Shown here: positions 8,364 to 63,766 of the stretch, piece after piece
Position numbering within the stretch: the stretch's first letter is position 1
Layout of the letters: each line of letters begins with the position of its first letter
Assembly (NCBI GenBank): GCA_964641245.1
Contig: CAZXML010000003.1
Location: 17,395-81,394 of the forward strand
DNA length: 64,000 bases
From: an uncultured Gammaproteobacteria bacterium
Lineage (GTDB): Bacteria > Patescibacteriota > Patescibacteriia > Magasanikbacterales > GWA2-37-8
Reading direction: 5' to 3'
Notes under the pieces: model-generated
Databases searched by the model: none
What the model was told of the DNA's origin: nothing
What the model saw: the letters and a program-made list of their open reading frames with translations, nothing else
Position numbers and translations under genes: made by a program

Positions 8364-8380
8364 AACATATATTATATCAC

Positions 8381-15440: not shown

Positions 15441-15454
15441 GCTACACTTTAAGT

Positions 15455-17342: not shown

Positions 17343-17498
17343 TGTCATTGCTCCTTGGCAGCCATTGGAATCCTTACAAATATATCCGACATAATTGCCG
17401 AACATACCGAAGGTTGTCCAAATAGACACCGTCTTAGCTAGGAACCATTCCCAGCCTTCTTTGGGATTTATCTATATACTTATTGAAAAGAACACCAA

Positions 17499-17527
17499 AG
17501 TATACCACAAAATAGGGGCTTTGTCAA
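17499..17527 (-). promoter_or_regulatory. Consensus sigma70 promoter TTGACA-17-TATACT (extended -10 TGGTATACT) driving the GC-rich ORF
   Basis: Minus strand reads tttgacaaagcccctattttgtggtatact. It shares the TGGACA/TTGACA-aagcccctat motif with element L. Confidence 0.7.
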
Positions 17528-17562
17528 ATATCGATACTAAAAAGATTAAAATTGATTTTAGG

Positions 17563-19197
17563 CTAAATCAATGCCTGTCCCGTCATATCTTCCGGTTGCG
17601 GAACACCCAGTAATTTTAAAACAGTTGGCGCCACGTCTGCCAATACCCCTACCGGATGCATTAAACTCAAATCCCCTTCCGGCGCGTCTCCAGCCGGGCC
17701 GGCTTGTCCCATAAACTCTTTGCCGATAACAATAAGAGGCACCGGATTGGTGGAATGTTCTTTGTCTATGGCGCCAGTCTGCAAATTAGTCATTTCTTCC
17801 GCGTTGCCATGATCGGCGGTAATCACCACCACTCCGTTTTGCGCCAAAGTATGATCCACAATTTCTCCCAAACATTTGTCGGTGACTTCACAGGCTTTAA
17901 TACCCGCTTGCAAATCCCCGGTATGAGCGACCATATCCGCGTTGGCCAGATTTAAAACCACAAAATCATATTTGGCGCTGTCAATCATTTTGCTTACTTC
18001 TTTGGTAATTTCTATCGCGGACATTTCCGGTTTTTGATCGTAACTGGAAACTTTTGCCGAAGGAATCATTAATCTGTCTTCTCCGGCAAACGGATTCTCT
18101 ACCGTGCCGTTTAAAAAGAAAGTAACGTGGGCGTATTTTTCCGTTTCGGCCACATGCATTTGCTTTAAACCGGCTTTACTGATTACTTCCGCCAAACTGT
18201 TGTGTACCACTATCGGCGCGTAAGCCACCACCGCCGGCAGTTCTTTTTCGTACTCGGTCATGGTGACGAAAAATAAATCTTTTTGATATTCTTTGGTGAA
18301 TTTATTAAAGGAAGGAACCACAAATGCCTGGGTTAATTCCCGCGCGCGGTCCGGTCTGAAGTTAAAAAATATCACCGCGTCATTATTATCTATGGTGGCC
18401 ACCGGTTTATCCTTGGAAGTTATAACCGTGGGAATAAATTCTTCATCGTAATTTTTTTGCGCGTAAGCTTCATCTATTACTTTAATGGGGTCTTCGGCAT
18501 ACCGATCGGCTTTGCCTTCAGCCATAGCGCGGTAGGCTTTTTCGCATCTGTCCCAACGGTTGTCGCGGTCCATGGCATAATAGCGCCCGGATAGAGTGGC
18601 GATTTTTCCCACTTTTAATTCGGACATTTTACCCTGCAGTTCCTGAACAAATTCTTTTCCGGAATTATACAGAGCGTCGCGGCCGTCTAAAATAGCATGG
18701 ATAAATACATTCTTTGTTAATTTTTCTTTTTTACAAAGTTCCAGTAAAGCGTAAAGATGCGCATTGCTGGCATGCACATTTCCGGAACTGACCAAACCAA
18801 CCAAATGCAATTTTGGTTTAGCGAAACCATGCCGCGTACCGTCATTTGAAACGCGGCTTTCTTCTTTTACTTTGGCAATGGCCGATAAAAGCGCGGGGTT
18901 GGAAAAAAACGCCCCGCTTTCTATTTCCTGATTTATTCTTGGACAACTTTGATAATAAACCCGGCCGGCGCCGATGTTTAAATGACCCACTTCCGAGTTT
19001 CCCATCTCGCCAAACATTAACCCCACTTCACTGCCCGAAGCGTGGATAGTCATGGTGGGATAATTTTTTAGAAATTTTACAAAATTAGGCGTTTGCGCCT
19101 TGGTGATGGCGTTGCCGTCCGCGCCCGGAGCAACACCCCAGCCATCCATGATGATCAAAATAACTGGTTTATAATTCATACAATTTATAATTGTCAT
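17563..19197 (-). CDS. gpmI: 2,3-bisphosphoglycerate-independent phosphoglycerate mutase
   Basis: 544 aa. IIMDGWG N-terminus and metal-binding Ser/His/Asp pattern of iPGM. Confidence 0.9.
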   Translation of the reverse strand: MTIINCMNYKPVILIIMDGWGVAPGADGNAITKAQTPNFVKFLKNYPTMTIHASGSEVGLMFGEMGNSEVGHLNIGAGRVYYQSCPRINQEIESGAFFSNPALLSAIAKVKEESRVSNDGTRHGFAKPKLHLVGLVSSGNVHASNAHLYALLELCKKEKLTKNVFIHAILDGRDALYNSGKEFVQELQGKMSELKVGKIATLSGRYYAMDRDNRWDRCEKAYRAMAEGKADRYAEDPIKVIDEAYAQKNYDEEFIPTVITSKDKPVATIDNNDAVIFFNFRPDRARELTQAFVVPSFNKFTKEYQKDLFFVTMTEYEKELPAVVAYAPIVVHNSLAEVISKAGLKQMHVAETEKYAHVTFFLNGTVENPFAGEDRLMIPSAKVSSYDQKPEMSAIEITKEVSKMIDSAKYDFVVLNLANADMVAHTGDLQAGIKACEVTDKCLGEIVDHTLAQNGVVVITADHGNAEEMTNLQTGAIDKEHSTNPVPLIVIGKEFMGQAGPAGDAPEGDLSLMHPVGVLADVAPTVLKLLGVPQPEDMTGQALI

Positions 19198-19249
19198 GCT
19201 GAACTTGTTTCAGCATCTCTTGATAGATCCTGAAATGAATTCAGGATGA
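19192..19249. repeat. Family A palindromic element (its ATGACA terminus supplies the gpmI start codon)
   Basis: tgtcatgctgaacttgtttcagcatc ... gatcctgaaatgaattcaggatga. Confidence 0.8.
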
Positions 19250-19256: not shown

Positions 19257-20807
19257 TTAAATCAAACTTTTCGCTGTCATTTCCGGTGGCTGTTTTATGC
19301 CCATCATTTTTAAAATAGTGGGAGCAACATTGGCCAGCTTGCCGTCCGGCAATTTAAGAGGCGCCGGCACGCGGCTGTTTATTAGAATAAACGGCACCGG
19401 ATTAAGTGAGTGTTCGGTATCAGGTTCGCCACTTTGCTCCTTTATCATTTCTTCTACATTTCCATGATCCGCAGTGACAACTGCCTGTCCGCCGTGTTTT
19501 GTTAAAACTTTAATTACGCGCGCCATTTCGGCATCGACAATACTTACTCCTTTTTGCGCGGAGGCAAAATTTCCCGTATGCGCCACCATATCCATATTGG
19601 CAAAATTCATGGCAATAAACTCGTATTCACCCGATTCAATGGCGCCAATTGCGTAATCGGCCAGCAGTTTGGCGCTCATCTCCGTATTGTTCTCATAATT
19701 TTTTACTCCCAATGAGGCGATTTTTACCCACTTTTCATTGCAAAAATGCTGCGCGTAACCGCCATTAAAAAAATAAGTAATATGCGCAAATTTTTCCGAT
19801 TCCGCTATGTACATTTGTTTTCTGGGACATAATACTTGCACCAAGCTATTGGTAACATCTCGGCTGGGAAAAGCGGTAAGTACCCCCGGTAAATCCGGGC
19901 CAAAATCACTAAGAGCTACAAAGCGGATATTTTTTGGATACTTTTCTCTTGTAAACGCTCCGGGATTAAGCTCTTTAAAATTTGGCTGCACAAAAACTTT
20001 GGTAATTTGCCGCGCCCGGTCGCTGCGTAAATTAAAAAAGAAAATAGCATCATTGTCTTTTATGGTGGCTACGGGATGATTATTTTCCATAATTACCGTG
20101 GGAGAAACAAATTCGTCCGTGTCTTCGTGATTATAGGCGTTTCTAAGACCGTCTTCAATGCTTGTGGCGCTAAATCCCTTGCCCAAAACCATAGCTTCAT
20201 AAGCTTGCTTGACGCGGTTCCAATCTTTATTTCTGTCCATAGCATAAAAACGGCCCATTACGGTGGCCACTTTTTCATTGCCATGAAAAAATTTTTCCAG
20301 AAGCCGCAAATGCTTGTGCGCTTCGTATTGGCCGGAATCCCGACCGTCCGTAAAAAGATGCAGATAAACCTTTTTTATTTTTTCGAGATGAAATAACTCC
20401 AACAAAGCCTGGAGATGCTCCGGGCAAGAATGCGCGCTGCTATGATTAGATAATAATCCCATTACGTGAACTGCGGTTTTATATTTTTTTACATGATGAA
20501 TCGCTTCGTGGAAGGCGTTATTTTTAAAAAACGTGCCGTCTTCAATTGAGTCGGATATATAAAGCGCGTCTTGTTTTACCACTCTGCCCGCGCCTAAATT
20601 TAAATGACCGGCTTCACTGTTGCCTGCCTGCCCCTTAAACAGCCCGACACTCTCACCGCTGGCCTCCAATTTGCAATTAGGATATTTTTTAAGCGCCCTA
20701 AAATAATTTGGCGCTGTTTTGGGAGTGATTGGATTGCCCGGTTCATGAGGGTTTCCAATTCCCCAACCATCTACAATCATTAAAAGTGTTGTTTTAAATT
20801 TTTTCAT
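19257..20807 (-). CDS. gpmI: iPGM paralog (second 2,3-BPG-independent phosphoglycerate mutase)
   Basis: 516 aa. LLMIVDGWGIG and homology throughout to the upstream copy. Confidence 0.85.
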   Translation of the reverse strand: MKKFKTTLLMIVDGWGIGNPHEPGNPITPKTAPNYFRALKKYPNCKLEASGESVGLFKGQAGNSEAGHLNLGAGRVVKQDALYISDSIEDGTFFKNNAFHEAIHHVKKYKTAVHVMGLLSNHSSAHSCPEHLQALLELFHLEKIKKVYLHLFTDGRDSGQYEAHKHLRLLEKFFHGNEKVATVMGRFYAMDRNKDWNRVKQAYEAMVLGKGFSATSIEDGLRNAYNHEDTDEFVSPTVIMENNHPVATIKDNDAIFFFNLRSDRARQITKVFVQPNFKELNPGAFTREKYPKNIRFVALSDFGPDLPGVLTAFPSRDVTNSLVQVLCPRKQMYIAESEKFAHITYFFNGGYAQHFCNEKWVKIASLGVKNYENNTEMSAKLLADYAIGAIESGEYEFIAMNFANMDMVAHTGNFASAQKGVSIVDAEMARVIKVLTKHGGQAVVTADHGNVEEMIKEQSGEPDTEHSLNPVPFILINSRVPAPLKLPDGKLANVAPTILKMMGIKQPPEMTAKSLI

Positions 20808-20815: not shown

Positions 20816-22063
20816 TTACATTCCCAGTTCCAGCTCAATTTCCATTAAACGATTATACTTCTCTACTCTTTCGGAACGGGACATGGAGCCCGTTTTGATA
20901 AATTCGGAATTAACGGCTACCGCCAAATCGGCAATAAAAGTATCCGCAGTTTCTCCACTGCGGTGCGAAATAAAAATTTGATAATTGTTCTTGCGGGCTA
21001 AGCTGATGGCGTTTATGGTTTCGGTAAGAGAGCCAATCTGATTAACTTTTATAAGCACGGTATTCGCGACATGCTCGTTTATTCCCCGCTGAATCCGCTC
21101 TACGTTAGTAACAAACAAATCATCGCCGACTAAATTTATTTTTTTGCCCAATTCTTTTGTGAGTAACTGCCAATTCTCCCAATCGTCTTCCGCCAAACCG
21201 TCTTCAATGGAAACAATGGGATATTTTTTTACCCATTGTTTTAGCACCTCTATCATTTTTGCCGGACGCCAGCCTTGTTTTTTACCGAGGAAATAATAAT
21301 TGCCGTGGCGGTAGAATTCCGAAGCAGCCACATCCAGCGCCAAAAAAACATGTTTGCCCGGTTCCCAGCCAGCCAGTTTTATGGCTTCAAGAATTAATTG
21401 GACGCCGCGTTCGTTATTTAACAACTCCGGCGCAAACCCGCCTTCATCGCCAACACCGGTTGAATACCCTTTTTGGCTAAGTAGATTGGCCAGTGAATGA
21501 AAAATTTGCGAACCCATACGAACACGTTCGCGCAATAATTTATGCCTGGGCATTATCATAAACTCCTGAATGGAAAGACCGTTGTCGGCATGGCGTCCGC
21601 CATTTATTATATTCATGCCCAAAACCGGCAAGCGATAATCTTTTTCCGGAATTTTATAAACATGCCGGATGTATTTATAAAGTGGCATATTCATCGCCAT
21701 TGCTCCGGTGCGCGCAACCGCCAAAGATACGGCTAAAATCGCATTGGCGCCCAGTCTGGATTTGGTTTTGGTTCCATCCAGCGCAATCATTGCGTTGTCT
21801 ATTTCCTGGATTTTAGCAACTTCCATTCCGCAAATTGCTTTGGCGATTTCGGTGTTAACATTTTTTACAGCCCGAAGAACACCTTTGCCGCCATAGCGCT
21901 TACCGCCATCCCGCAATTCCAAAGCTTCGTGCGTGCCGGTAGAAGCCCCGGAAGGAACTTTGGCCGCCGCGCTGATGCCATTTTCCAGAACAACTTTCGC
22001 TTCCACTGTCGGATTACCGCGCGAGTCCAGTATTTCACGGGCAACAATTTGTTTAATCTGCAT
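20816..22063 (-). CDS. eno: Enolase
   Basis: 415 aa. [22 protein letters not shown]. Confidence 0.95.
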
Positions 22064-22088: not shown

Positions 22089-22157
22089 TGTCATGCTGAA
22101 CTCGTTTCAGCATCTACTGTACACTTGATTAGATCCTGAAACAAGTTCAGGATGACA
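22089..22157. repeat. Family A palindromic element
   Basis: tgtcatgctgaactcgtttcagcatc ... gatcctgaaacaagttcaggatgaca. Confidence 0.85.
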
Positions 22158-23118: not shown

Positions 23119-23123
23119 TTGGT

Positions 23124-23211
23124 TGTCATTGCGAGGAGCCGTAGCGACGTGGCAATCCCATTGTCGGTACTACCAGTACTTTGGGATTGCTTCGCTAAGC
23201 TCGCAATGACA
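23124..23211. repeat. Family C palindromic element (gtcattgcgag...gcaatccc / gggattgc...ctcgcaatgac)
   Basis: Near-reverse-complement twin at 63668-63756. Confidence 0.85.
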
Positions 23212-24376
23212 GCGCTTCTATTCCCGGTAATTTCTTCCCACTTAGGTATTCTATCATAGATCCGCCTCCGGTTGAAGCCAGGTCAATATCTCCGATAAGT
23301 CGCAGTTTTTTTAATATTTCTATGGTTTCTCCGCCGCCCGTAACACCAAAGGCTTTTCCTTTTGCCCTGGCGGCAATTAAATGAGCAACGGAATAAGTGC
23401 CATATTCATACGGATGCTGTTCAAAATAACCCACGGCTCCGTTCCAAACCAAGGTTTGCGCTTTTTTTATGTATTTAGAAAATAATTTTATAGTTTTTGG
23501 CCCGATATCAAATATGGATTGGCTTTTATTTCTTAGATTTAAATTTTTAACATCTACCGCGTGCGCCAACTTTCCATCTTTTGTGCCTACTATTACATCT
23601 ACCGGTAAAATCACGCCTCTTTTGGAACAATACTTTAAAATTTCTTTTTTTAAATTTTTATCTACAAATGAACCGCCGACGTTATAACCTTTTGCCCACA
23701 GATAAGTATTTAAAATTCCGCCGCCCACCAAAATATGATTCGCTTTTTTTAACAAACTTTTTAAAACCGGAATTTTGGTTTCTGTTTTTATGCCAGCCAA
23801 AACGACTACAAATGGTTTTCTGGGGCTTTTTAGAACACAACTTAAACCCTCGATTTCTTCTTCCAGCAATAATCCTGCGTAAGACGGCAAATATTTGGTA
23901 ACGCCTGTTACTGAAGCCGCCCAGCGATGAGCAACGGCAAACCCGTCTAACACAAACACATCGGCCAAGCGGGCCAGTTCTTTGGAAAATTGCTCGGAAC
24001 ATTCTTCTTCCCCTTTTACAAAACGGATGTTTTCCAGCATTACTACCGCGCTGGGGAATAATTTCTCTATTTGAATTTTAGCTTTTTTTAAATCTTTAAC
24101 GTCCAGCAATTTAACGTTTTTCTGCAAAAACTTTCCTAACTCGCCCGCTACCGGTTTTAAACTTAATTTTTTATCTACTCCATTTGGCCTGCCCAAATGG
24201 CTGACTAAAATAATCTTAGCGCGTTTTTCCATTAAAAATTTAATGGTCGCCAAGCTTTTTTTTATTTTATAATTATCCAAAACCTTTCCGCCTTTTATTG
24301 GCACATTAAAATCCACGCGCACCAGCACATTTTTATTGGCTAAATTCTTTAGATGTTGAATAGATTTTATTTTCAC
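23195..24376 (-). CDS. pgk: Phosphoglycerate kinase (GTG start)
   Basis: 393 aa. VRVDFNVP N-terminal signature. Confidence 0.95.
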   Translation of the reverse strand: MKIKSIQHLKNLANKNVLVRVDFNVPIKGGKVLDNYKIKKSLATIKFLMEKRAKIILVSHLGRPNGVDKKLSLKPVAGELGKFLQKNVKLLDVKDLKKAKIQIEKLFPSAVVMLENIRFVKGEEECSEQFSKELARLADVFVLDGFAVAHRWAASVTGVTKYLPSYAGLLLEEEIEGLSCVLKSPRKPFVVVLAGIKTETKIPVLKSLLKKANHILVGGGILNTYLWAKGYNVGGSFVDKNLKKEILKYCSKRGVILPVDVIVGTKDGKLAHAVDVKNLNLRNKSQSIFDIGPKTIKLFSKYIKKAQTLVWNGAVGYFEQHPYEYGTYSVAHLIAARAKGKAFGVTGGGETIEILKKLRLIGDIDLASTGGGSMIEYLSGKKLPGIEALSLRA

Positions 24377-24451: not shown

Positions 24452-25504
24452 TTACTCCGTTAAATTTTCATACCCAACCTCATCCGGCCACAAATAATGG
24501 TCAAAAGTCCATTCCGCCAAATCACGCGCTTCGCTGAATCTGGCTTCATTGGTGGCGGCGCCGAATATTACCACCGTGATGCCGTGTTTTTTTTCATTGC
24601 TTAAACTGACAACAAAATTATAGCCGGAGTCGTCTATGTAGCCGGTTTTGCCGGCGATGTTTTCCACTTTAAAATTATTGGGAATCCAGTTTGTTAACAG
24701 CCAGTTGGTTGTCCAAACTCTTCTGAGTTTATTGCCGTTTAGCGGTTGGACGTAATACTCTCCGGTCTGCACAGTGGTAAAAATTTTATCAAATTTTAAA
24801 GCGTCTATGAGCAGTTTGGCCGTATCCAGCGCATTGGCCATATTTTTACCGGATAACCCGGTTGGCTCGCTAAAACGGGCCGACGCCAGACGCAAATCTT
24901 TTGCTTTGGCGTTCATCAAACCGACAAACGCCTCTTTGGAAATTCCGGAATTTCTTACTAGCGCGTTAATAGATGCGTTGGAAGAACCAATTAATGCTAC
25001 ATGCCACAAATCTTCCAAGGTGAATTTTTCGCCCACATTAACATGATGATCCCCGGCCACATCGTCGTCCATAATTACGGTTGTTGACGCCCAATCAACC
25101 GGCAAATCCATTAATACCATGGCGGTCATTAATTTAGTAATGCTGGCCAGTGAACGAACTTCGCCGGTATTTTTACTGAATAAAACAGTTTTTGTTTTGG
25201 TGTCTACCACGATCGCCTCGGCGGCCGTGCTGGAACCGGAAAAAACAACCTTATCTTTTGCCAGAGGAACAGCTGGTTTGCTGGCCGGTAAATTTTCCAG
25301 ATAAACATCCCCGCCGGCCATTACTCTTTTACCGCCTGCCTGGCCGGCAGGCAGGCTGGCGGGAAATTTAAGAAAACTAAGATTATTTCCGGGAGCAAAA
25401 AAAACCGAAGAAAAAAATAACAATAAAACGCCGGCCAGCATTATGCCGAAGGATGATAAAAAATCTGTGACTTTGTTGGACATACTTTTCGCGCGGTTTG
25501 TCAT
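24452..25504 (-). CDS. D-alanyl-D-alanine carboxypeptidase (peptidase S11, PBP5/6-like)
   Basis: 350 aa. SxxK (SITK), SxN (SSN) and KTG motifs. N-terminal TM anchor. Confidence 0.8.
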   Translation of the reverse strand: MTNRAKSMSNKVTDFLSSFGIMLAGVLLLFFSSVFFAPGNNLSFLKFPASLPAGQAGGKRVMAGGDVYLENLPASKPAVPLAKDKVVFSGSSTAAEAIVVDTKTKTVLFSKNTGEVRSLASITKLMTAMVLMDLPVDWASTTVIMDDDVAGDHHVNVGEKFTLEDLWHVALIGSSNASINALVRNSGISKEAFVGLMNAKAKDLRLASARFSEPTGLSGKNMANALDTAKLLIDALKFDKIFTTVQTGEYYVQPLNGNKLRRVWTTNWLLTNWIPNNFKVENIAGKTGYIDDSGYNFVVSLSNEKKHGITVVIFGAATNEARFSEARDLAEWTFDHYLWPDEVGYENLTE

Positions 25505-25559
25505 GCTGAACTTGTTTCAGCATCTTTCGTGTAGATCCTGAAACAAGTTCAGGATGACA
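25499..25559. repeat. Family A palindromic element (ATGACA terminus is the dacA-like start codon)
   Basis: tgtcatgctgaacttgtttcagcatc ... gatcctgaaacaagttcaggatgaca. Confidence 0.85.
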
Positions 25560-25562
25560 GTA

Positions 25563-26133: not shown

Positions 26134-26844
26134 CTAGTTTTTAGTAACTAATAAATCTTCAAACGCGTTTACCTGCCGGAAACGAACCGATTGCTGTTTG
26201 ACTAATTCCAGAATGGCTAAAAAACTGACTATGACTTCGGTTTTATTTTGCGCCGAGGACAGCAAATTTTTAAAGCTGAATTCTTTTCCGCTTTTTAATA
26301 ACTCACGGATGGAGTCTATTTTTTGCTTGATGGAAATAGAATGATCGATGCTTACCTTTGGCAACGGCTCCAGCGGTTTTAAGCGGTTAAGCAGAAAAAC
26401 CATGGAGTTGTACAAATTATTCGTAGTGGCATTGACCGGTAAAACAAATTCTTTAGACTTTATCGGCGGCTCAATTCTGCCGTAAGCAATTTTATTGGCC
26501 TCCCACAAACTATTTACGGTCTTACTGGCCTCTACATACTGTTTGTATAATTTTAACTGATCCGCCAGCCCCGGACCAGTATCCTCTTCTTCGGGAAACG
26601 CGTACTGCAACAAGCTATGCGATTTTAAATAAATAAGCCGGGCGGCAACAACCAAAAAATCTGCCAGTTCTTCGGGACGATTTTTTTCCAGCTTGTCTAA
26701 ATAGGAAAAAAACTGCTCGGTAACTTTGGCTAAGGCAATTTCGGTGATGCTTAACTTTTCCTGATCAACCAGTTGCAACAATAAATCCAAAGGCCCTTCA
26801 AATTTTTCCAGTTTTAGTTCTTGCATATAACTTACTTTTGTCAT
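26134..26844 (-). CDS. scpA: Segregation and condensation protein A
   Basis: 236 aa. LELLLQLVDQEKLSITEIALAKVTEQF. Confidence 0.8.
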   Translation of the reverse strand: MTKVSYMQELKLEKFEGPLDLLLQLVDQEKLSITEIALAKVTEQFFSYLDKLEKNRPEELADFLVVAARLIYLKSHSLLQYAFPEEEDTGPGLADQLKLYKQYVEASKTVNSLWEANKIAYGRIEPPIKSKEFVLPVNATTNNLYNSMVFLLNRLKPLEPLPKVSIDHSISIKQKIDSIRELLKSGKEFSFKNLLSSAQNKTEVIVSFLAILELVKQQSVRFRQVNAFEDLLVTKN

Positions 26845-26910
26845 CCTGAACTTGTTTCAGGATCTTTCGAATCTGACGGCGATAGATGCTGAAACAAGTT
26901 CAGCATGACA
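26839..26910. repeat. Family A palindromic element (ATGACA terminus is the scpA start codon)
   Basis: tgtcatcctgaacttgtttcaggatc ... gatgctgaaacaagttcagcatgaca. Confidence 0.85.
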
Positions 26911-26921
26911 ACTACCTTGCC

Positions 26922-30663: not shown

Positions 30664-30686
30664 ATTTTAATTGTTTACGCAACATA

Positions 30687-30770
30687 CCCCTCTCTCTGTC
30701 TCTCCCCTAAAAGGGGAGAGGACGATTGAGTGAATTGACATTGCCTGTCGTGGTCGTTCCTCCCCGCTTT
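30687..30770. repeat. Family E palindromic element (cccctctctctgtctctcccctaaaaggggagagg) plus a related tcgttcctcccc half
   Basis: Other copies at 43515-43625 and 45792-45886. Confidence 0.8.
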
Positions 30771-31149: not shown

Positions 31150-32145
31150 TTAAGAATACAACTCCGCCAACTCCACCAACCGGTGCGCGTAGCCGACTTC
31201 GTTGTCGTACCAGGCAACTACTTTTACCAGATTTCCACCCACCACGTTGGTTAAAGACAAATCAACCGTGGCGGAATAAGCGCTGCCTCTGAAATCAGAG
31301 GAAACCAACGGTTCGCTTGTGGTGGTTAGTACGCCGGCAAAACGATCGGTTTTGGCCGCTTTCATAAAAGCCTCATTTACTTCTTCTTTGGTGACATTTT
31401 TTTTAAGCAAAACTGTAATATCGGAAAGAGAACTGACAAGCACCGGTACGCGCAATGCCAAACCGTCAAAAGCTCCGGACAAATCCGGAATTACTTCGGC
31501 GGTAGCAGTGGCCGCGCCTGTGCTGGTGGGCACAATATTTTCCGCCGCGGCTCTGGCCCGGCGTAAATCTTTATGCGGGCCGTCCTGCAAATTTTGATCC
31601 GCGGTATAGCCATGCACCGTGCTCATCATGGCTTTTTCAATTCCAAAATTTTCATGCAAAACCGCCATTACCGGAGCGATACAATTGGTGGTGCAAGAAG
31701 CGTTATTTATTACCGAAGATTTTTCTTCCCCTACTTTACCGCAATTTACCGCGCGCACATAAGTTGGCACATCGCCACCCTTTGCCGGAGCGCTAATAAT
31801 TACTTTTCTTGCCCCCGCCTTAATATGCATTTCTGCGCCTTCCTTATTTGTAAACCGGCCGGTACATTCCAAAACAACATCCACCTTCAACTTTCCCCAA
31901 GGCAATATAGTTGGGTCTTTTTCCGCAAAGACCGGAATTTTTTTACCGTTTACAATTAAATTTTTCTCATCAAATTCTACCGGCAGATTATAATGACCGT
32001 AGGCAGTATCATATTTTAATAAATGCGCCAATGTTTTGGTGTCGGTTAAATCGTTGATGGCGACAACTTTTATATCTTTTTTAGTGATGGCAACTTTGAA
32101 AGCCTGTCTTCCTATCCTTCCAAACCCGTTTATTGCAATATTCAT
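31150..32145 (-). CDS. gap: Glyceraldehyde-3-phosphate dehydrogenase, type I
   Basis: 331 aa. NGFGRIGR and active site ASCTTNCIAPV. Confidence 0.95.
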   Translation of the reverse strand: MNIAINGFGRIGRQAFKVAITKKDIKVVAINDLTDTKTLAHLLKYDTAYGHYNLPVEFDEKNLIVNGKKIPVFAEKDPTILPWGKLKVDVVLECTGRFTNKEGAEMHIKAGARKVIISAPAKGGDVPTYVRAVNCGKVGEEKSSVINNASCTTNCIAPVMAVLHENFGIEKAMMSTVHGYTADQNLQDGPHKDLRRARAAAENIVPTSTGAATATAEVIPDLSGAFDGLALRVPVLVSSLSDITVLLKKNVTKEEVNEAFMKAAKTDRFAGVLTTTSEPLVSSDFRGSAYSATVDLSLTNVVGGNLVKVVAWYDNEVGYAHRLVELAELYS

Positions 32146-32170
32146 AATATTTTTAATAAATTATTTTAAT

Positions 32171-32534
32171 TGTCATCCTGAATGAAATGAAGGATCTCTG
32201 TCTTGTCCAATTAACTGATTATACAAGTCCTGCCATCTAAAATTTTGTTTTGTTATGATTTCCACTTTTCTATTACGCTTCCAGCCTTTCAATTCTTTTT
32301 CTCTTTTAATAGCATCATTTATATTAAAAAAGTGTTCATAATATACCAATTTTTTACACTTATATTTTTTCGTAAAGCCATCGATTATTCCGGCTCTGTG
32401 TTCTTCTACTCGTCTAATAAGGTCATTTGTCACTCCTATATAATACACAACTTACACTAGCCATTATGTATACATAATAATTGTGATTGGCCATAAGAAA
32501 CAGACAGAGATTCTTCGCTTTGCTCAGAATGACA
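32171..32534. mobile_element. Family B element, full-length form: its terminal inverted repeats enclose a GIY-YIG ORF
   Basis: Left arm tgtcatcctgaatgaaatgaaggatctctgtc (32171-32202) and right arm gacagagattcttcgctttgctcagaatgaca (32503-32534). These are the same arms that bound the about 80 bp MITE copies. The ORF stop TGA lies inside the left arm. The right arm is followed by a 3x atgggaca tandem. Confidence 0.6.
32173..32448 (-). CDS. GIY-YIG nuclease family protein (UPF0213/YhbQ-like), N-terminally truncated
   Basis: YYIGVTNDLIRRVEEHRAG = YxG...TxDLxRRxxEH core. GTG start with in-frame TAA two codons upstream. The first beta-strand (GIY) is missing. Confidence 0.65.
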   Translation of the reverse strand: MYYIGVTNDLIRRVEEHRAGIIDGFTKKYKCKKLVYYEHFFNINDAIKREKELKGWKRNRKVEIITKQNFRWQDLYNQLIGQDRDPSFHSG

Positions 32535-32560
32535 ATGGGACAATGGGACAATGGGACAAT
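32535..32560. repeat. Tandem repeat (atgggaca)x3 abutting the family B right terminus
   Basis: Seen directly. The unit resembles the element terminus (attgtca / attgtccc on the minus strand). Confidence 0.7.
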
Positions 32561-43517: not shown

Positions 43518-43625
43518 TACTTCGTCGTTCCTCCCCCTTTTAGGGGGAGGGCAGGGTGGGGGTATTTGTTCGTGGTACAACCGCCGATATACCCCTCTCT
43601 CTATCTCTCCCCTAAAAGGGGAGAG
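43515..43625. repeat. Two family E palindromic elements (ccccctttta ggggg / cccctctctctatctctcccctaaaaggggagag)
   Basis: Seen directly. Same family as 30687 and 45792. Confidence 0.8.
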
Positions 43626-43652
43626 AACCCCACCGAGTCCAGTCGGCTCTTA

Positions 43653-43681: not shown

Positions 43682-43794
43682 TTAGGCACTAATTACGCTT
43701 TACCTCATTCTTTTATAATTGTAACGAAGAGAGAGAAAAGGTCGCTCGTGACCTTTTCCGAACGAGTTGCAATTATATGAAATCTTAATTTCAT

Positions 43795-44100
43795 ATGCAG
43801 AAAAAAATACATCCGGAATACAACAATGACACAGAGGTTTCATGCGCTTGCGGCAATAAATTTATTACCGGCAGTACCATGAAGACCATCCGCGTGGAAC
43901 TTTGCAACAAGTGCCATCCTTTTTATACCGGCAAACAAAAATTTGTAGACACTGCCCGCCGTGTAGAAAAATTCCAAGAACGCACCGACAAGAAAACTGC
44001 CGCTTCCGCTGTCCGCAAAGGCAAGAAAGTAAAGAAAGCAGCCACAGCTGTAAAGAAGACCGCCAAGAAAGCGGAGAAAAAAGAAAAATCCAAAGCTTAG
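43795..44100 (+). CDS. rpmE: 50S ribosomal protein L31 with K-rich C-terminal extension
   Basis: [19 protein letters not shown]...[12 protein letters not shown]. Confidence 0.9.
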
Positions 44101-45323: not shown

Positions 45324-46182
45324 TATGTTGGATTTTGATTTGCTAAAGGCGCATGCCATAAAAAAACCAAAAGAATTTTTATACTCTCATCCCGAATATC
45401 GTTTATCAGTTTGGCAAAAACTGCGTTTAAAATATTTTCTCTCCCTGCGCAAAAAGGGCTATTCCGTAGCCGTCATTACCAAGCATAAAGAATTTTACGG
45501 CTTGGATTTTTTTGTGAATAAACACGTTTTAATCCCCCGCCCCGACACCGAGTTGATGGTGGCAGAAGCGATCGAAGAAATTAAAAAAAATGATAAGATA
45601 ATTTTAGTTGATGTTGGTACCGGAAGCGGGTGCATACCAATTTCTATTTTAAAAAATATACCAAACCAAATACAAACATTTGCGACCGATATTTCGAACG
45701 CGGCTTTGCGAGTAGCGAAAAAAAATGCCCGAATACATAATGTGAACATTAAATTTTTCCACGGTAACTTGCTTGAACCAATTTTCAAAAACCCCTCTCT
45801 CTGTCTCTCCCCTTATAGGGGAGAGAGGAACGAACTCCTCTCTGTAGTTCCCTCCCCTATAAGGGGAGGGGCGAAGGGTGGGGTTTTCATCACCGCCAAC
45901 CTCCCCTACCTTACCAAACAACAATTTCAATCCGAACCGAGCATTCAAAAAGAACCAAAAATCGCACTCACGGCAAAAAATAACGGCTTGGCTTTATACG
46001 AAGAATTATTTAATCAAATAAAAAATGCCGGTCTGACAGCAACTATACTTACAGAAATCGACCCTTCTCAAACCGATGCAATCTCCCAACTTATAAACCA
46101 ATATCTTCCCGGCTCAAAAATTGAAATAAAAAAAGACCTCGCCGGGCGAGATCGTTTAGTAAAAATTGTCATGTCATCCTGA
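45307..46182 (+). CDS. prmC: Release factor glutamine methyltransferase PrmC/HemK with in-frame repeat insertion
   Basis: VLIPRPDTE and VGTGSGCI motifs. The NPPY box reads NLPY. A 30-aa insertion ([30 protein letters not shown]) is encoded by a family E palindrome. The stop codon is supplied by a family A repeat. Confidence 0.8.
45792..45886. repeat. Family E palindromic element pair inside prmC (in-frame)
   Basis: cccctctctctgtctctccccttataggggagagg ... ttccctcccctataaggggaggggcgaagggtgggg. Confidence 0.8.
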
Positions 46183-46237
46183 ACTTGTTTCAGGATCTGT
46201 CACCAACCAAAGATGCTGAAATAAATTCAGCATGACA
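46173..46237. repeat. Family A palindromic element
   Basis: tgtcatcctgaacttgtttcaggatc ... gatgctgaaataaattcagcatgaca. Confidence 0.85.
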
Positions 46238-46243
46238 ATTGAT

Positions 46244-47334: not shown

Positions 47335-47419
47335 TGTCATCCTGAACTTGTTTCAGGATCTTCGTTATTGTTCCGTAGATGCTGAAACAAGTAGATCCTG
47401 AAACAAGTTCAGGATGACA
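47335..47419. repeat. Family A palindromic element (three-hairpin variant)
   Basis: tgtcatcctgaacttgtttcaggatc..gatgctgaaacaagtagatcctgaaacaagttcaggatgaca. Confidence 0.85.
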
Positions 47420-47423
47420 TTAA

Positions 47424-48197: not shown

Positions 48198-48222
48198 ATG
48201 ATAATATTATTTTGTCATGCTG

Positions 48223-48270
48223 AATTTATTTCAGCATCTACGTAGATCCTGAAACTAGTTCAGGATGACA
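48223..48270. repeat. Family A palindromic element
   Basis: tgtcatgctgaatttatttcagcatc..gatcctgaaactagttcaggatgaca. Confidence 0.85.
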
Positions 48271-48593
48271 GTTAAAAAATTTGGACTGTTGATAAATTTA
48301 TGCCCTTCAATTGTTTCATCAATCGTAAGGGGCGGCAGTTTGTATAATTTTTGGACGTCTTTTAAACTTAGGTCAGTAATCATTCCTACCGTGCTCATGC
48401 CTTTGGGCATCATCATTACCATGGCCATAAAGTGGCTTTGGCAATGCGCGCAGGTAAAATGGACAAATCTGGCGTCGCTTTCATTTATAAACAACTTGCC
48501 GGCAGATTTGTAGTCATGACCGCAAATCGGACAATGGCTAATCAGTTTTAAAGTTTTTCGCCAAGAATCGGCTTTGCTATTGTTTGGCAACAT
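48255..48593 (-). CDS. Hypothetical zinc-ribbon protein
   Basis: 112 aa. CPICGH...CAHCQSH Cys4-type motif. Confidence 0.4.
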   Translation of the reverse strand: MLPNNSKADSWRKTLKLISHCPICGHDYKSAGKLFINESDARFVHFTCAHCQSHFMAMVMMMPKGMSTVGMITDLSLKDVQKLYKLPPLTIDETIEGHKFINSPNFLTVILN

Positions 48594-48850
48594 AATATAT
48601 TATGTACGAAATACGAAAATTGCGAAAATACGAAATTTTACATACCGATCAGTTTGCGTTTTCGTAGCTTTCGTATTTCGTACATCCGCCTTAATATTAA
48701 AGGATTTTGCGGATTTTGTCAATAGTTTAAATACTAAGGTATTTTTCACACACGCTCGGAAAAGAAAAAGCGTTTTCTTTTCTCTCACTTTGTGTAAAAA
48801 ATAAAGAAGCCCCGGGCAACCAATAATGGCGCAGGGGGCCGATGGAAAAA

Positions 48851-51358: not shown

Positions 51359-51922
51359 AACTTATTTATTATATCACAAAAATAACGTTCCGAAAAATTG
51401 TTACTCCACCTTTTGTGCAAACAAAAGGTGGAGCCCAAAATTGCCGAGCTGATGAACTTTGCCTCGAACTGCCATCAACTCACCTTTGTTCGTGTTCAGA
51501 AGAGCAAGCAATCGCACTTCACACGTCTCCCTACGGGAGACCACAAAGCCTCATCGTGGCCAGTTCGGGCGAAAGTTCAAATGCTCGGACGGTGTCTGTT
51601 GGTGATTGTCTGTTGTCCACCGGTGTCCGGGCGAGCATTGGACAAGGTGAAGTTAAATTTAGAGATGAGTTGGGAACGGTCTTCCCGAAGGGAGACTGGT
51701 TGTGCTGTTTGAGACTACCTGTTAGAAACAGGTAGTTGAGTTCACAACCAGAGTGACAACGAGTCCTAAATTTTCTGAAGCTTTCCACCGCGAGCGCTTC
51801 TTGGTTACTTCTTCTGAAGAAGTGACGAAAGACCAGTTTGCTTGTCCGGAAAAGGCAACAAAGTGTTTTGCTTACGCAAATATAAATTAAAAAACCCGCC
51901 TTCCGAAGAAGAACGGGCCGTG

Positions 51923-55586: not shown

Positions 55587-55737
55587 TTTTTAGTCATAAA
55601 TTTTATGGGAAATCCAGAGGGTGGACACGGTGAGAGAAGAGATGCGGAATACTTTAATCGAGAAATTCTAATCTATAGATGTGCACACCCCCTCTTGACT
55701 TATTCCCCGTAATAGGGTAATATTAACTCATCAAATA

Positions 55738-55765
55738 AAGACAGCCGCAAGGCTGTTTTAAAAAA
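55738..55765 (+). terminator. Terminator after gyrB
   Basis: acagccgcaaggctgt + tttta. Confidence 0.6.
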
Positions 55766-55766: not shown

Positions 55767-55853
55767 CTAAAATATAGGGGCTTCGCCACATATATACTCA
55801 TTCGCTCGAAAATAATCAAAAACATTTGATTATTTCTCTCACTCATTTCGTAT
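55767..55853. repeat. Conserved promoter/leader element L, copy abutting the secE start codon
   Basis: Inverted repeat aaataatcaaa-aaca-tttgattattt at 55810-55835. ctcactcatttcgtatATG. Confidence 0.8.
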
Positions 55854-56042
55854 ATGATCAACGCAATCAAAAACTACTTTGTCGGGGCTTTTCAGGAAAT
55901 GAGAAAAGTTACCTGGCCTTCCAAAAGCCAGACTATAAATTACAGTGTATTGGTAATCGCTTTAAGCGTCGGCATGGCTCTATTTTTCGGCTTATTGGAT
56001 TACATATTTAGTTGGGGCGTTACAAATTTATTTTTAAAGTAA
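55854..56042 (+). CDS. secE: Preprotein translocase subunit SecE
   Basis: 62 aa. Single TM. Sits upstream of nusG. Confidence 0.8.
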   Translation: MINAIKNYFVGAFQEMRKVTWPSKSQTINYSVLVIALSVGMALFFGLLDYIFSWGVTNLFLK

Positions 56043-56048: not shown

Positions 56049-56189
56049 TGTCATCCTGAACTTGTTTCAGGATCTCTGTCCGTGAGTTGTCATTCCCGCC
56101 CGAGAGCGGGAATCCAGTCGACGATTGTCTGGATTCCCAATCAAGTTGGGAATGACATGCGCAGATGCTGAAATAAATTCAGCATGACA
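56049..56189. repeat. Family A element with a nested family D element (56088-56157)
   Basis: tgtcatcctgaacttgtttcaggatctctgtccgtgagt[tgtcattcccgcccgagagcgggaatccag...ggattcccaatcaagttgggaatgaca]tgcgcagatgctgaaataaattcagcatgaca. Confidence 0.8.
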
Positions 56190-56202
56190 AAAAACACATT
56201 AT

Positions 56203-56773: not shown

Positions 56774-56912
56774 TGTCATTCTGAGCACAGCGAAGAATCC
56801 CTCTCTGTCATTCTCGCCAAAGCGGGAATCCAGTGTCCGATTGTCTGGATTCCCATTGTTATGGGAATGACAATTAAACGGACAGAGATCCTTCACTACG
56901 TTCAGGATGACA
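56774..56912. repeat. Family B element (inverted) with a nested family D element (56816-56872)
   Basis: tgtcattctgagcacagcgaagaatccctctc[tgtcattctcgccaaagcgggaatccag...ggattcccattgttatgggaatgaca]attaaacggacagagatccttcactacgttcaggatgaca. Confidence 0.8.
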
Positions 56913-56963
56913 AGTACCGGCTTCTCGGTCATAATTCTTAATTCATAATTCTTACTTAAATCT

Positions 56964-57429: not shown

Positions 57430-57462
57430 ATGAAGACGTCCCGGTTGGGGCGTCTTTTAGTT
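57430..57462. terminator. Rho-independent terminator
   Basis: agacgtcccggttggggcgtct + tttagtt. Confidence 0.7.
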
Positions 57463-57484
57463 GTGCTGTTTTAACGGAAATGTG

Positions 57485-58042
57485 TTACGGACAAACGCCG
57501 AGCGTGTCGCCGTGCGCCAGATGGGCGGGAACGGCTGGTGTGCCGACACAGATGTTGTGAAGATTGGCCGGATTGCCGGGTGGGTAATGGCAAAGAAGGG
57601 CCTTACCGGACGCGCAGGATTCATCATCCCCGTCGTCGCCGTCTCCGTCGCAGACGCACTGGCCGTCCACGCAGATTTGACCTTCGGGGCAGTCGTCGTC
57701 GGAGTAGCACCCCGGAACGCCGGCATCGGAAACGCCGACAACACCACCATCATGAACTTCGCCAACTCCTCCGTCAGAAGTGCCGATGACGACATTCGCA
57801 TCAGCAGTGTCAACAGTATTGCTGTCGGGCAGGCTGGCATCAGCGTTCATTTCACCTCCGTCAACCTGGGTCATGCTAGCATCGTCCTGGCTCTGCGTCG
57901 CATCCATACTATCTGCCGGCACCATGCCGTCAGCCAGCAATACCCCGCCATCCAGGTCATAGCCACCAGGAGGACTTTGGCCACAGCCAGCCATGAGCAC
58001 AAAAGCAAAGAGCGTTGTCATTCGGTTCATCATCGTTCGCAT
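57485..58042 (-). CDS. GC-rich acidic Cys-rich lipoprotein (Asp/Gly-rich, about 62% GC)
   Basis: Signal + lipobox LMAGC. AGGAG 6 nt before ATG. CPEGQICVDGQCVCDGDGDDG. Confidence 0.5.
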   Translation of the reverse strand: MRTMMNRMTTLFAFVLMAGCGQSPPGGYDLDGGVLLADGMVPADSMDATQSQDDASMTQVDGGEMNADASLPDSNTVDTADANVVIGTSDGGVGEVHDGGVVGVSDAGVPGCYSDDDCPEGQICVDGQCVCDGDGDDGDDESCASGKALLCHYPPGNPANLHNICVGTPAVPAHLAHGDTLGVCP

Positions 58043-58147
58043 CGGATTCTCCTTTTTGGTTCTGTGTTCGGAACAGGTTTGGGTTTATTCTATATAGCTC
58101 CACATATAACCTCACTCGCTCGGAAGTAGCCAAGCATGCTTGGCACT

Positions 58148-59311
58148 TCACTCACTCATGTCGGTTATCAGCATCGCATCGCCAAAACTAAAAAAACGAT
58201 ACTTTTCGGCAACTGCTTTATCGTAACATCTTAGCACAAACTCTCTATCATTTGCAAGCGCGCAAACCAACATCAGCAAAGTGGACTTTGGCAGATGGAA
58301 ATTGGTAATTAGCGCGTCTACAATTTTAAATTTAAAACCGGGATAAATAAAAATATTGATATCGCCGGAATACGGACGCAAAATTGGAAATTGGAAATTA
58401 GAAATTAGAAATTTTTGGGCAACGCCTTCCAATACTCGAACCGTAGTCGTCCCCACCGCCACCACTCGCCTACCTTCGGCTTTGGCCTGATTTATTAAAT
58501 CGGCATTTTTTGATGTCAGTTCTACCCACTCGCTATGCATACGATGTTCCTCCAAACTTTCGGTTTTCACCGGCAAAAACGTTCCCAATCCCACATGCAA
58601 AGTTACTTCCGCAAATTCCACCCCTTTATCCTTCAATTTTTCTATCAGCTCCGGAGTAAAATGAAACCCGGCCGTTGGCGCCGCCACCGACCCTTCTTCT
58701 TTGGCGTACACCGTTTGGTATCGGTTTGTTAATTGTTCATTGTTAATTGTTAACTGGTCAATATACGGTGGTGTCGGCACTTCCCCATATTTATTCGCTT
58801 TCGCCCGCACCAACATATCGTCCTCTTCAAACTGAATTAAAAAAGTGCCGTCATTTTCTCTTAACATTACTTCAGCGCTAAAGTCCGGAGCAAAAACAAT
58901 TTTCATTCCCAAGCGCAACTTTCTGCCCGGCTTAGCCAGCGCTTTCCACACTTTATTATTTTCCATTGGCTTGACCAAAAAAATTTCTACCGGCGTGGCG
59001 TTTAAAATTTTACCGGTAGTGACTACTTTTCCCACCAAACCATCCGTTTCTTCATCCAACATTATTTGACCGCGCAAACGGGCCTTAAAAACTTTGGTAT
59101 TATTCCAAACCAACAAATCCCCTTTTTTTAAACAATCAACAATATCAAAAAAATGTTTGTCTTCAACTTTTTTTGCTTTTCTATCTAAAACCATCAAACG
59201 CGAACTATCGCGCGGTTCCAACGGAATTTGCGCGATGAGCTGTTTGGGTAAATTATAATCAAAATCAGAGGCTAACATACTAGAGCTTTCTTTTATTCGC
59301 ATTATGCTCAT
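58148..59311 (-). CDS. queA: S-adenosylmethionine:tRNA ribosyltransferase-isomerase
   Basis: 387 aa. IFIYPGFKFKIVDALITNFHLPKSTLLMLV. Contains a (gaaattN)x5 tandem at 58379-58413. Confidence 0.9.
   Translation of the reverse strand: MSIMRIKESSSMLASDFDYNLPKQLIAQIPLEPRDSSRLMVLDRKAKKVEDKHFFDIVDCLKKGDLLVWNNTKVFKARLRGQIMLDEETDGLVGKVVTTGKILNATPVEIFLVKPMENNKVWKALAKPGRKLRLGMKIVFAPDFSAEVMLRENDGTFLIQFEEDDMLVRAKANKYGEVPTPPYIDQLTINNEQLTNRYQTVYAKEEGSVAAPTAGFHFTPELIEKLKDKGVEFAEVTLHVGLGTFLPVKTESLEEHRMHSEWVELTSKNADLINQAKAEGRRVVAVGTTTVRVLEGVAQKFLISNFQFPILRPYSGDINIFIYPGFKFKIVDALITNFHLPKSTLLMLVCALANDREFVLRCYDKAVAEKYRFFSFGDAMLITDMSE
58379..58413. repeat. Heptamer tandem repeat gaaattg/gaaatta x5 inside queA
   Basis: Seen directly. 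Encodes ISNFQFPI, extra relative to typical QueA. Confidence 0.7.
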
Positions 59312-62064: not shown

Positions 62065-62138
62065 GCGCCCGTAGCTCAGTGGTTAGAGCACTGCCCTTAT
62101 AAGGCAGGGGTCCTCGGTTCAAGTCCAAGCGGGCGCAC
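62065..62138 (+). tRNA. tRNA-Ile with anticodon TAT (UAU)
   Basis: gcgcccg ta gctcagtggttagagc a ctgcc cTTATAa ggcag gggtc ctcgg ttcaagt ccaag cgggcgc a. Isoleucine-type D-arm. Perfect acceptor and anticodon stems. One C-A mismatch in the T-stem. No encoded CCA. Confidence 0.7.
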
Positions 62139-63667: not shown

Positions 63668-63756
63668 TGTCATTGCGAGCAAAGCGAAGCAATCCCAAAG
63701 TACTGGTAGTGCCGGACAGTGGGATTGCCGCGTCGCTACGGCTCCTCGCAATGACA
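63668..63756. repeat. Family C palindromic element (twin of 23124-23211)
   Basis: tgtcattgcgagcaaagcgaagcaatccc...gggattgccgcgtcgctacggctcctcgcaatgaca. Confidence 0.85.
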
Positions 63757-63766
63757 ACTAAATTGT

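Follow-up and report, generated by a model that had tools for sequence, protein, structure and literature searches.

A small element without terminal inverted repeats that probably moves between start codons in Magasanikbacteria-type Patescibacteria

Introduction

Directly in front of secE, in a 64,000-nucleotide stretch of metagenomic DNA (contig CAZXML010000003.1 of assembly GCA_964641245.1; the whole stretch is hereafter designated the window), lies a sequence of about 90 bp that recurs before other genes. The stretch is deposited as an uncultured Gammaproteobacteria bacterium and is placed by GTDB in the Magasanikbacterales of the Patescibacteriota. An earlier note, made from the letters alone, had regarded the sequence as a portable promoter and leader cassette with a perfect 11 bp inverted repeat, always oriented toward the downstream start codon. 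The locus raises the question of whether such a unit is a promoter, an operator, a regulatory leader or mobile DNA. From the comparison of its copies and of the sites at which it is missing, we consider it probable that the unit (hereafter the element) is a small, non-autonomous mobile DNA, lacking terminal inverted repeats (TIRs), which inserts at TA before ATG, rebuilds the start codon, and forms the last ~80 bases of the leader.

Architecture and copies in the window

The repeat itself was confirmed by alignment: positions 55770-55858 of the plus strand and 6536-6623 of the minus strand (copies A and B) are 86.5% identical over an 89-nt alignment, and the window contains four occurrences of a 23-nt core, CATATANNCTCAYTCRCTCGRAA, with no more than 3 mismatches, compared with 0.01 expected. 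A covariance model built from element copies (R1), applied to the window and the collected loci, found seven members in the former and 130 matches across 719 kb of the latter. Read from 5' to 3', the element consists of TA, a hairpin P0 (TATATGGGC-loop-GCCCATATA), nnC, CTCATTCGCTCG, a second hairpin P2, TCTCACTCATTTCG, nn', TA, and TG, and measures ~78 nt in the short form and ~112 nt in the long form. P0, at the 5' end, is formed by the left TA and TA(T/G)GGGC, a loop, and GCC(N)CA-TATA, of which the 3' arm belongs to a 9-mer designated S2 (CATATAnnC). P2, lying 20 nt from the 3' end, has a conserved base (GGAAA/TTTCY) and a freely varying top, with 25–32 nt in the short form, ~64 nt in the three-tier long form, and stems of 9–25 bp. 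Two CU-rich direct tracts are present, one between P0 and P2 (CTCATTCGCTCG) and one after P2 (CTCACTCATTTCG); the right strand, CTCACTCATTTC, is a direct, not an inverted, repeat of the left strand, TCAYTCRCTCG. The segment S3 is composed of G-nn', followed by TA and then T(G/A). No TIRs were found, the 5' TA(T/G)GGGC.. and the 3' ..CATTTCGnn not being inverted repeats of each other, and the 3' end pairs with the internal S2, which is located 14–20 nt inside the 5' end. All three reading frames of its antisense strand contain stops. The copies in the window are as follows.

55769-55856, plus strand: copy A, R1 score 99.7 bits, adjoining the secE ATG (55854-55856)
55773-55774 and 55853-55854, plus strand: left and right TA of copy A, with the element proper at 55775-55852
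55789-55797 and 55850-55852, plus strand: S2 (CATATATAC) and S3 (G-TA) of copy A
55798-55808 and 55837-55849, plus strand: left CU-rich strand and right strand of copy A
55810-55820 and 55825-55835, plus strand: arms of the P2 hairpin of copy A
6538-6624, minus strand: copy B, 85.9 bits, adjoining the bactofilin ATG (6540-6538); left TA 6620-6619, right TA 6541-6540, P2 inverted repeat 6559-6584 with one mismatch
2587-2688, minus strand: copy C, 39.2 bits, a complete copy with a long three-tier P2
24368-24444, minus strand: copy D, 28.4 bits, of a divergent subfamily, overlapping the pgk GTG start (24376); P0 TATAC-taag-GTATA, P2 GGAAATAAAA/TTTTAATTTC
48726-48803, plus strand: copy E, 30 bits, of the D subfamily (80% identical to D); P2 GGAAAAGAAAA/TTTTCTTTTC
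58087-58169, plus strand: copy F, 68 bits, a complete copy; P2 GAAGTAGCCAAGC/GCTTGGCACTTC, S2/S3 pair AC/GT
43714-43801, minus strand: copy G, 31.2 bits, of a third subfamily; S2/S3 TATAATTG/CAATTATA, P2 GAAAAGGTC/GACCTTTTC

This list extends the repeat beyond what the earlier note had described and modifies several details given there. Copies A and B abut an ATG as it had stated, whereas copy C, whose 3' end reads ..CATTTCGAT-TA-TA, stops ~60 nt upstream of the ndk ATG (2527). The perfect 11 bp inverted repeat attributed to every full copy is found in copy A only (AAATAATCAAA-N4-TTTGATTATTT), copy B having one mismatch and copy C the longer three-tier hairpin. The supposed partial copy at 58088-58147 proved to be the complete copy F, which is antisense to both of its neighbours, queA on the minus strand and a lipoprotein gene (57485-58042, minus strand) 45 nt upstream of which it lies; another, at 17495-17535, shares only ~14 nt (aagcccctat..) and gives no match to R1. 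Orientation toward a start codon is not universal, as copy E is antisense between two minus-strand open reading frames (ORFs) with no gene downstream, and copy G has neither an adjoining start codon nor a downstream gene. The 60 nt between copy C and the ndk ATG (2528-2592) contain three aaaaagcta repeats and a palindrome, ggccgatcggcc, and may be another small insertion that pushed copy C off the start codon.

Filled and empty insertion sites

Relatives were gathered by a protein-guided metagenome scan with the NusG of the window, which yielded 65 loci with 98–51% identity; the nearest contigs, with 98% identical NusG, derive from Hainich aquifer (groundwater) metagenomes, which assigns the window to a groundwater bacterium of the candidate phyla radiation. 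Copy A is carried by none of the relatives with 79–98% identical NusG, among them strains with 94–98% identity, the site being empty in L107, L101, L111, L106, and others. At secE, the empty allele of L107 reads ..aaaaaacctaaaattATG (also given as ...gacagccgcaaggctgttttaaaaaacctaaaattATGATA...), whereas the filled allele of the window reads ..aaaaaacctaaaa-TA-TAGGGGC...CATTTCGTA-TA-TG, or, in wider context, ...gacagccgcaaggctgttttaaaaaacctaaaa-TA-TAGGGGCTTCGCC...CATTTCGTA-TA-TGATC.... Copy F has an empty counterpart in L108 (..ggtttCATTTTATCagcatcgc), the filled allele of the window reading ..gggtttATTC-TA-TATAGCTCC...GTCGGT-TA-TCagcatcgc; at rplK, the empty allele is that of L110 (tctaacTATATGGCC) and the filled one that of L113 (tctaacTC-TA-TATGGGC...CATTTCGAA-TA-TGGCC). 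Thus, TA flanks the insert on both sides in all three close pairs of filled and empty alleles. More distant empty sites were found at truB-like, thioredoxin, rplK, and secE genes, and the start residue of the protein is identical in filled and empty alleles in every case. Moreover, the left TA marks the limit of similarity between copies, the sequence upstream being unconserved, and tandem copies share a single TA (...CATTTCGnn-TA-TA(T/G)GGGC...). Two other readings of the junctions were abandoned: S1 as what remains of the former ATG, the element having inserted behind the start codon, was dropped in favour of TA flanks because of the F site, with its TATC right junction, and the tandem junctions; a 4-bp TATA duplication was likewise set aside, as the F site supports only TA.

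The contents of the element also differ between sites. Near-identical types of P2 recur before unrelated genes of different genomes, whereas orthologous genes (those for SSB, adk, bactofilin, and rplK) carry differing versions of P2 and P0; the bactofilin ortholog in L016, for example, has a copy whose P2 differs from that of copy B. In L027 (2187-2229), P2 has been lost via recombination between two direct CTCATT tracts. In other strains, the same position of the secE leader holds different sequences: L109 has an antisense copy (a remnant of one remains in L101), L104 an antisense copy of the G type, L108 a 'tacgaaa' palindrome, and L113, L122, and L126 REP-like hairpins. Collectively, the polymorphism, the tandem junctions, and the distribution of P2 types indicate a mobile non-autonomous element and not a leader that has evolved where it stands. 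Inverted, head-to-head pairing of D-type and A-type copies was also observed (L021, 5138-5287; L053, 7617-7772).

Distribution of the family

An exact-pattern scan of 185,579 species-representative genomes gave 99 matching stretches, 98 of them in ~24 metagenome-assembled genomes (MAGs) of the Patescibacteria/Magasanikbacteria type, which belong to the candidate phyla radiation (CPR), with a maximum of 15 pattern copies per assembly. The matching assemblies are labelled Candidatus Magasanikbacteria/Magasanikiibacteriota, 'Patescibacteria group', 'Parcubacteria group', or, in third-party data, 'uncultured Gammaproteobacteria' or 'Udaeobacter'; the ribosomal protein L11 of the third-party MAGs is 80–87% identical to that of the window. 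The 99th match, on a Halieaceae contig of 53% GC (L099), has no right end and was attributed to chance. As far as the scans show, the family is confined to Magasanikbacteria-type Patescibacteria. A phage origin was rejected, since a scan of viral contigs for the element pattern returned no match. A literature search for Magasanikbacteria repeats and for MITEs (miniature inverted-repeat transposable elements) of the CPR found nothing. The designation 'portable leader cassette' is right in substance: in many genomes, copies of the element have come to stand before unrelated genes, where they presumably furnish the final ~80 nt of the leader together with the context of the start codon.

Landing sites and orientation

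Among 103 pattern copies, 76 (74%) end in a TATG that opens an ORF of at least 60 residues, ~14 more are directed at a gene within 100 nt, and ~9 lie antisense, extend into the 3' end of a gene on the opposite strand, or both; ~90% of the copies lie in sense orientation upstream of a gene, which replaces the 'always' of the earlier note. The right TA is followed by T in 77 of 78 copies and then by G in 66 and A in 9. The preferred target is TA followed directly by T(G/A), which in AT-rich, tightly packed genomes is mostly the TATG of a start codon. In the window, T stands at position -1 in 41 of 63 genes, non-coding DNA makes up 11%, and start codons account for 19% of the non-coding TATR sites and 45% of the non-coding TATG sites.

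The genes downstream have no common function and include those for secE, rplK, SSB, TrmD, GroES, LigA, RecA, Adk, pgk, L9, L17, thioredoxin, bactofilin, and many membrane proteins. Of 94 upstream neighbours, 75 are co-directional, the median gap being 23 nt, which places many copies within operons; where the neighbour is co-directional, about half of the copies begin 0–25 nt past its end. Copy F illustrates a landing of another kind. It is inserted 5 nt before the stop codon of queA on the minus strand (queA 3' end, 58148-58165), so that QueA ends in LITDMSE in the window and in LIK in L108, and it also creates a long spurious plus-strand ORF (57461-58129) that is open to mis-annotation. An assignment of this ORF as rplA was found to be wrong, as Pfam gives no hit and the translation resembles that of non-coding DNA; the real gene is that of the lipoprotein on the minus strand.

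Pairing segments and hairpins

Both junctions of the element, the left one and the right one (GnnTA-TG), have complementarity to S2. Where copies stand head to tail, S2 and the joined ends make up a single long palindrome; in such an arrangement, tandem or circular, GnnTA-TA(T/G)GGGC-loop-GCCCATATAnnC has arms of 12 bp, which would account for the complementarity of S1 and of S3 to S2. Covariation was assessed in an alignment of 78 short copies, with P1 denoting the S2:S3 pairing. Standard pairs fill 93.3% of the P1 and P2 cells, compared with 77% in column shuffles (of which 0 of 500 attain 93.3%) and 34–51% with slid partners. Changes on both sides were found in 8 of the 10 P2 pairs and in 2 of the 7 P1 pairs, namely the two 'nn' pairs, for which nn/nn' was TT/AA in 34 copies, TA/TA in 23, AA/TT in 6, AT/AT in 6, AC/GT in 1, and TG/CA in 1, so that 71 of 103 copies are fully complementary. 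In the main subfamily, the outer pairs of P0 show conservation without covariation; matched variants occur in divergent subfamilies, TATAC/GTATA in D, E, and L122, and inner stems aatt/aatt and gc/gc in L028 and L097.

The 102 copies contain 89 different P2 sequences, almost every one of which folds into a single hairpin (median folding z-score relative to shuffles, -4.7). This diversity, combined with the compensatory changes, supports the view that the inverted repeat is a conserved hairpin, as RNA or single-stranded DNA, in agreement with the alternative of a stem that the earlier note had also offered. The predicted minimum-free-energy fold contains P0 in 71 of 102 copies and the AUG-pairing P1 in 24, copy A among them. 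A comparison of G.T with A.C mismatches, which might distinguish the strands, gave 15 and 16 in P2, although this test is weak and biased by the ascertainment of copies; an excess of A.C in P1 was discarded as an artefact, as the search pattern had fixed the 5' partner. In a comparison with the Rfam covariance models, only two tRNAs of the window reached the gathering score, and nothing meaningful was obtained at E ≤ 10 around copy A. No GGAGG-like Shine-Dalgarno run was found in the 20 nt before the ATG, where the consensus is CTCACTCATTTCGnnT.

Mobile DNA or regulatory leader

Several observations weigh against interpreting the element as mobile DNA. Among ~60 ORFs of the window compared with Pfam, none showed a transposase or recombinase domain, Y1_Tnp included, and the search for an autonomous version, having the left end without the right end, returned as its sole candidate the chance match in Halieaceae; with neither a cognate enzyme nor an autonomous parent found, mobility is deduced from insertion polymorphism only. 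Classical TIRs are absent, and the flanking dinucleotide, being TA in every case, could stem from a duplication, from a crossover core, or from the element itself. Furthermore, 74% of the copies at start codons, against the 19–45% given by site availability, goes beyond random insertion and points to target choice, selection, or host benefit, and a sense bias of ~90% would not be expected of selfish, orientation-blind insertion without selection. The maintained complementarity in S2:S3 and P2, with its covariation, also fits a function as RNA. The preference for TATG and the small share of non-coding DNA explain the association with start codons in part; the rest, together with the sense bias, requires selection or directional target recognition.

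The same observations feed the strongest competitor, according to which the element is a cis-regulatory RNA leader (a translational switch or thermometer, or an enhancer of expression or stability) selected as a regulon-wide module, with alternative pairing of S1, S2, and S3 opening or masking the AUG and P2 stabilizing the mRNA. Such a function is compatible with mobility. It would account for three mutually complementary segments with two exclusive folds (P0 as the minimum in 71 of 102 copies, P1 in 24), for the covariation in P1 and P2, for the sense bias and the exact placement of 76 of 103 copies at an ATG, and for the recurrence of elements at rplK, SSB, adk, and bactofilin in several genomes. 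However, the element is patchily present among near-identical strains, the genes that it serves share no function, and copies stand antisense, at 3' ends, within the last codons of queA, and in tandem. Orthologous sites bear unrelated versions of P0 and P2, no Rfam model matches, and no asymmetry of G.U over A.C toward the sense RNA strand was seen in the weak, ascertainment-biased test described above. We therefore consider a selected regulatory leader an unlikely explanation of the family.

Promoter and operator

A portable promoter, in which the CATATAAT-like box of S2 would serve as the -10 element of the downstream gene, is less probable still. Its appeal lies in S2 reading TATAAT, TATATT, TATAAA, or TATATA ~60–95 nt before the ATG, in the P0 arm of subfamily D producing TGGTATACT, a look-alike of an extended -10, and in the few copies that lie within 30 nt of a divergent ORF. 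The element, however, has neither a -35 box nor a TG extension, and a promoter scan called no sigma-70-like site on the sense strand of copies A and B. No conservation is seen upstream of the left TA, roughly half of the copies that have a co-directional gene before them follow it within 0–25 nt, and the last two bases of the would-be -10 hexamer co-vary with the 3' end of the element, which a promoter does not explain. At secE, the native promoter and the upstream leader, both retained in relatives without copy A, are located as follows.

55695-55723, plus strand: native secE promoter, TTGACT-17-TAATAT, outside and upstream of copy A
55741-55762, plus strand: secE leader hairpin, ACAGCCgcaaGGCTGT followed by a T-tract, in the native leader outside the element, between the promoter and the insertion site

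The promoter part of the earlier description is thus unsupported, given also that many copies lie in operons, and the element would instead be transcribed within the gene's own leader. Of the consensus promoters proposed for the opposite strand, one is present at 17495-17535, as a strong and independent site (TTGACA-17-TATACT, 11 of 12 matches, with TG), whereas the copy at 58088 has none on either strand. The secE leader hairpin with its T-tract (ACAGCCgcaaGGCTGT-TTTT) resembles an intrinsic terminator, and its position is kept with differing stems (acggccgaaaggccttttt, agccccgcagggctttt) in L101-L164, down to ~40% SecE identity; it may be an attenuator of the secE-nusG operon.

A dimeric repressor bound to the 11 bp inverted repeat and co-regulating the downstream genes, suggested by the perfect palindrome of copy A and by the same palindrome type in ~15 copies, can be dismissed as highly improbable, because the 102 copies have 89 different stems of 9–25 bp with compensatory changes in 8 of 10 pairs and only the basal GGAAA/TTTCY conserved.

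Proposed mechanism

The element lies between two TA dinucleotides, with the native promoter and the upstream leader kept in place. With TA on both sides, the ATG is rebuilt and the first residue of the protein retained, and the element is presumably tolerated at start codons because the ATG is restored. It would then be co-transcribed from the promoter of the gene and become the 3' part of the 5' untranslated region (UTR), where the sense orientation would offer a pyrimidine-rich, mostly unstructured stretch, devoid of a Shine-Dalgarno sequence, ahead of the AUG. In the mRNA, P0 is predicted to leave the CU-rich stretch and the AUG largely open in most copies; the S2:S3 pairing, with which P0 would compete, could mask the AUG. 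Insertion itself may depend on a trans-acting enzyme, possibly of the HUH/IS200-like class or a site-specific recombinase, that recognises the conserved hairpin bases or the junction pairing and acts by cleavage or crossover at TA. The junction palindrome is suggestive of a hairpin or circle intermediate, or of guide-like pairing.

A bolder version, in which S2 is a built-in guide that pairs with the joined ends and the TATG target and so directs insertion, S1, S2, and S3 then acting as a translational switch, seems doubtful at present. To our knowledge, such a logic of transposition, with nucleic-acid-directed insertion at start codons, has not been described for elements of this kind.

Comparison with known systems

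By description, the element appears functionally closest to REP2 of Neisseria. REP2 and the plasmid repeats IR-A/IR-B of Borrelia are TIR-less repeats of ~100–150 bp with two stem-loops and tens of copies per genome, which lie immediately upstream of ORFs and provide a 5' UTR and their own ATG, and whose origin, like their spread, is unexplained; REP2 is described with a promoter and a ribosome-binding site (Delihas 2011, PMC3184786). The present element likewise adjoins ORFs with its own ATG (76 of 103 copies), is TIR-less, and has two internal stem-loops (P0 and P2). Unlike REP2, with which it is compared by description only, it has no detectable promoter or Shine-Dalgarno sequence and belongs to another phylum; documented for it beyond REP2 are empty sites, TA flanks, tandem junctions, and copies that are antisense or at 3' ends.

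MITEs of the Correia (CREE) and ERIC types are small, non-coding, multi-copy, TA-flanked, polymorphic, hairpin-forming, and co-transcribed, and often lie 5' of genes (PMC3184786; PMC2229807). With them the element shares its size (78–112 nt), lack of coding capacity, dispersed copies, empty sites, TA on both sides, hairpins, frequent position 5' of genes, and, presumably, co-transcription with its neighbours. It differs in having no TIRs, in that its 3' end pairs with an internal 9-mer and its 5' end is half of a hairpin, in its nucleotide-exact association with start codons, and in a central hairpin varying in sequence and length.

IS200/IS605-derived elements (PATEs) and REP/REPIN with RAYT insert 3' of a tetra- or pentanucleotide of fixed sequence and make no flanking repeat. 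A Borrelia example of IS200/IS605-derived elements is available (PMC3184786, section 12). Like these, the element is TIR-less, carries hairpins near its ends, and inserts in an orientation-specific manner at a short fixed target, and the complementarity between S2 and the junction recalls the pairing of guide and cleavage site in IS200/IS605; it deviates from them in having TA on both sides, plain Watson-Crick pairing over 7–9 nt, and no Y1/RAYT gene seen in the window.

Putative mobile promoters are upstream regions of 50–100 nt with at least 80% identity between non-homologous genes, within or between genomes (Matus-Garcia et al. 2012, PMC3488235). The element fits this class, which is defined by similarity and position; its boundaries, target, and structure are resolved, and a promoter is unsupported. 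There is, finally, a formal likeness to attC, in which structure is conserved while sequence and length vary, and the full palindrome exists only with the ends joined and is split on integration. The attC sites of integrons flank the 3' end of gene cassettes and need an integrase and attI, with crossover at GTT; the element is found at housekeeping genes and at a TA site, so that the likeness is formal only. Taken together, we rate the element as a TIR-less member of the REP2-like, leader-plus-ATG type, with an unusually exact association with start codons and an internal segment complementary to the junction.

Other repeats and genes in the window

The window is rich in further small repeats. 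A REP-like hairpin family (GTCATCCTGAACTTGTTTCAGGATC / GTCATGCTGAA..TTCAGCATGAC) occurs mostly as inverted pairs in short intergenic gaps, often abutting start or stop codons, and its stem bases co-vary (CC/GG and GC/GC). Other hairpin-repeat families (GTCATTCTGAG..GAAGAATC, GTCATTCCCGC..GCGGGAATC, and GTCATTGCGAG..GCAATC) have the same GTCAT...ATC frame as the REP-like family with other stems. A tacgaaa/tttcgta palindromic insert, of the type seen in the secE leader of L108, and a 40-nt repeat were also observed.

6643-6710, 19190-19249, 22089-22157, 25498-25561, and 26839-26911: REP-like hairpin family
46172-46238, 47335-47420, 48212-48270, and 56049-56190: further members of the REP-like hairpin family
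1753-1841, 3505-3589, 15449-15541, 32166-32206, 32499-32536, and 56774-56919: other hairpin-repeat families
23119-23211 and 63668-63761: a further hairpin-repeat pair, 92.5% identical
48600-48690: tacgaaa/tttcgta palindromic insert, in the leader of the minus-strand ORF 48255-48593
30684-30723, 43589-43628, and 45789-45873: 40-nt repeat CCCCTCTCTCTGTCTCTCCCCTAAAAGGGGAGAG with a CCCCT..AGGGG hairpin, four copies, two of them adjacent

Most genes of the window have no Shine-Dalgarno sequence, the lipoprotein gene at 58042 having aaggag, and TGTGATATAAT stands 7–9 nt before the ATG of several genes (8364-8390, 51359-51385, and others), as expected for leaderless mRNAs. A tRNA-Ile with the anticodon TAT (UAU) is present at 62065-62138; AUA is read in most bacteria by a lysidine-modified CAU tRNA. 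The glycolytic cluster (gap, 31150-32145; pgk, 23195-24376; eno, 20816-22063) contains two adjacent, paralogous genes for cofactor-independent phosphoglycerate mutase (17563-19197 and 19257-20807).

Biological meaning

The Patescibacteria of the CPR have tiny, tightly packed genomes in which mobile DNA is scarcely described. Copies of the element call for caution in annotation, as they alter gene ends (the C-terminus of QueA), create spurious ORFs, and could be taken for promoters, operators, or riboswitches. The empty sites, the TA flanks, and the junction palindrome offer a handle on how TIR-less 'leader plus ATG' repeats proliferate, the question posed by REP2 of Neisseria. If the guide and switch reading were true, ~5–10% of the genes in minimal CPR genomes would be under a shared mobile leader. 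As mobile DNA, which is the interpretation that we favour, the element shows how a parasite can persist where there is almost no free DNA, by landing on TATG and rebuilding the start codon, the sole cost being a new leader.

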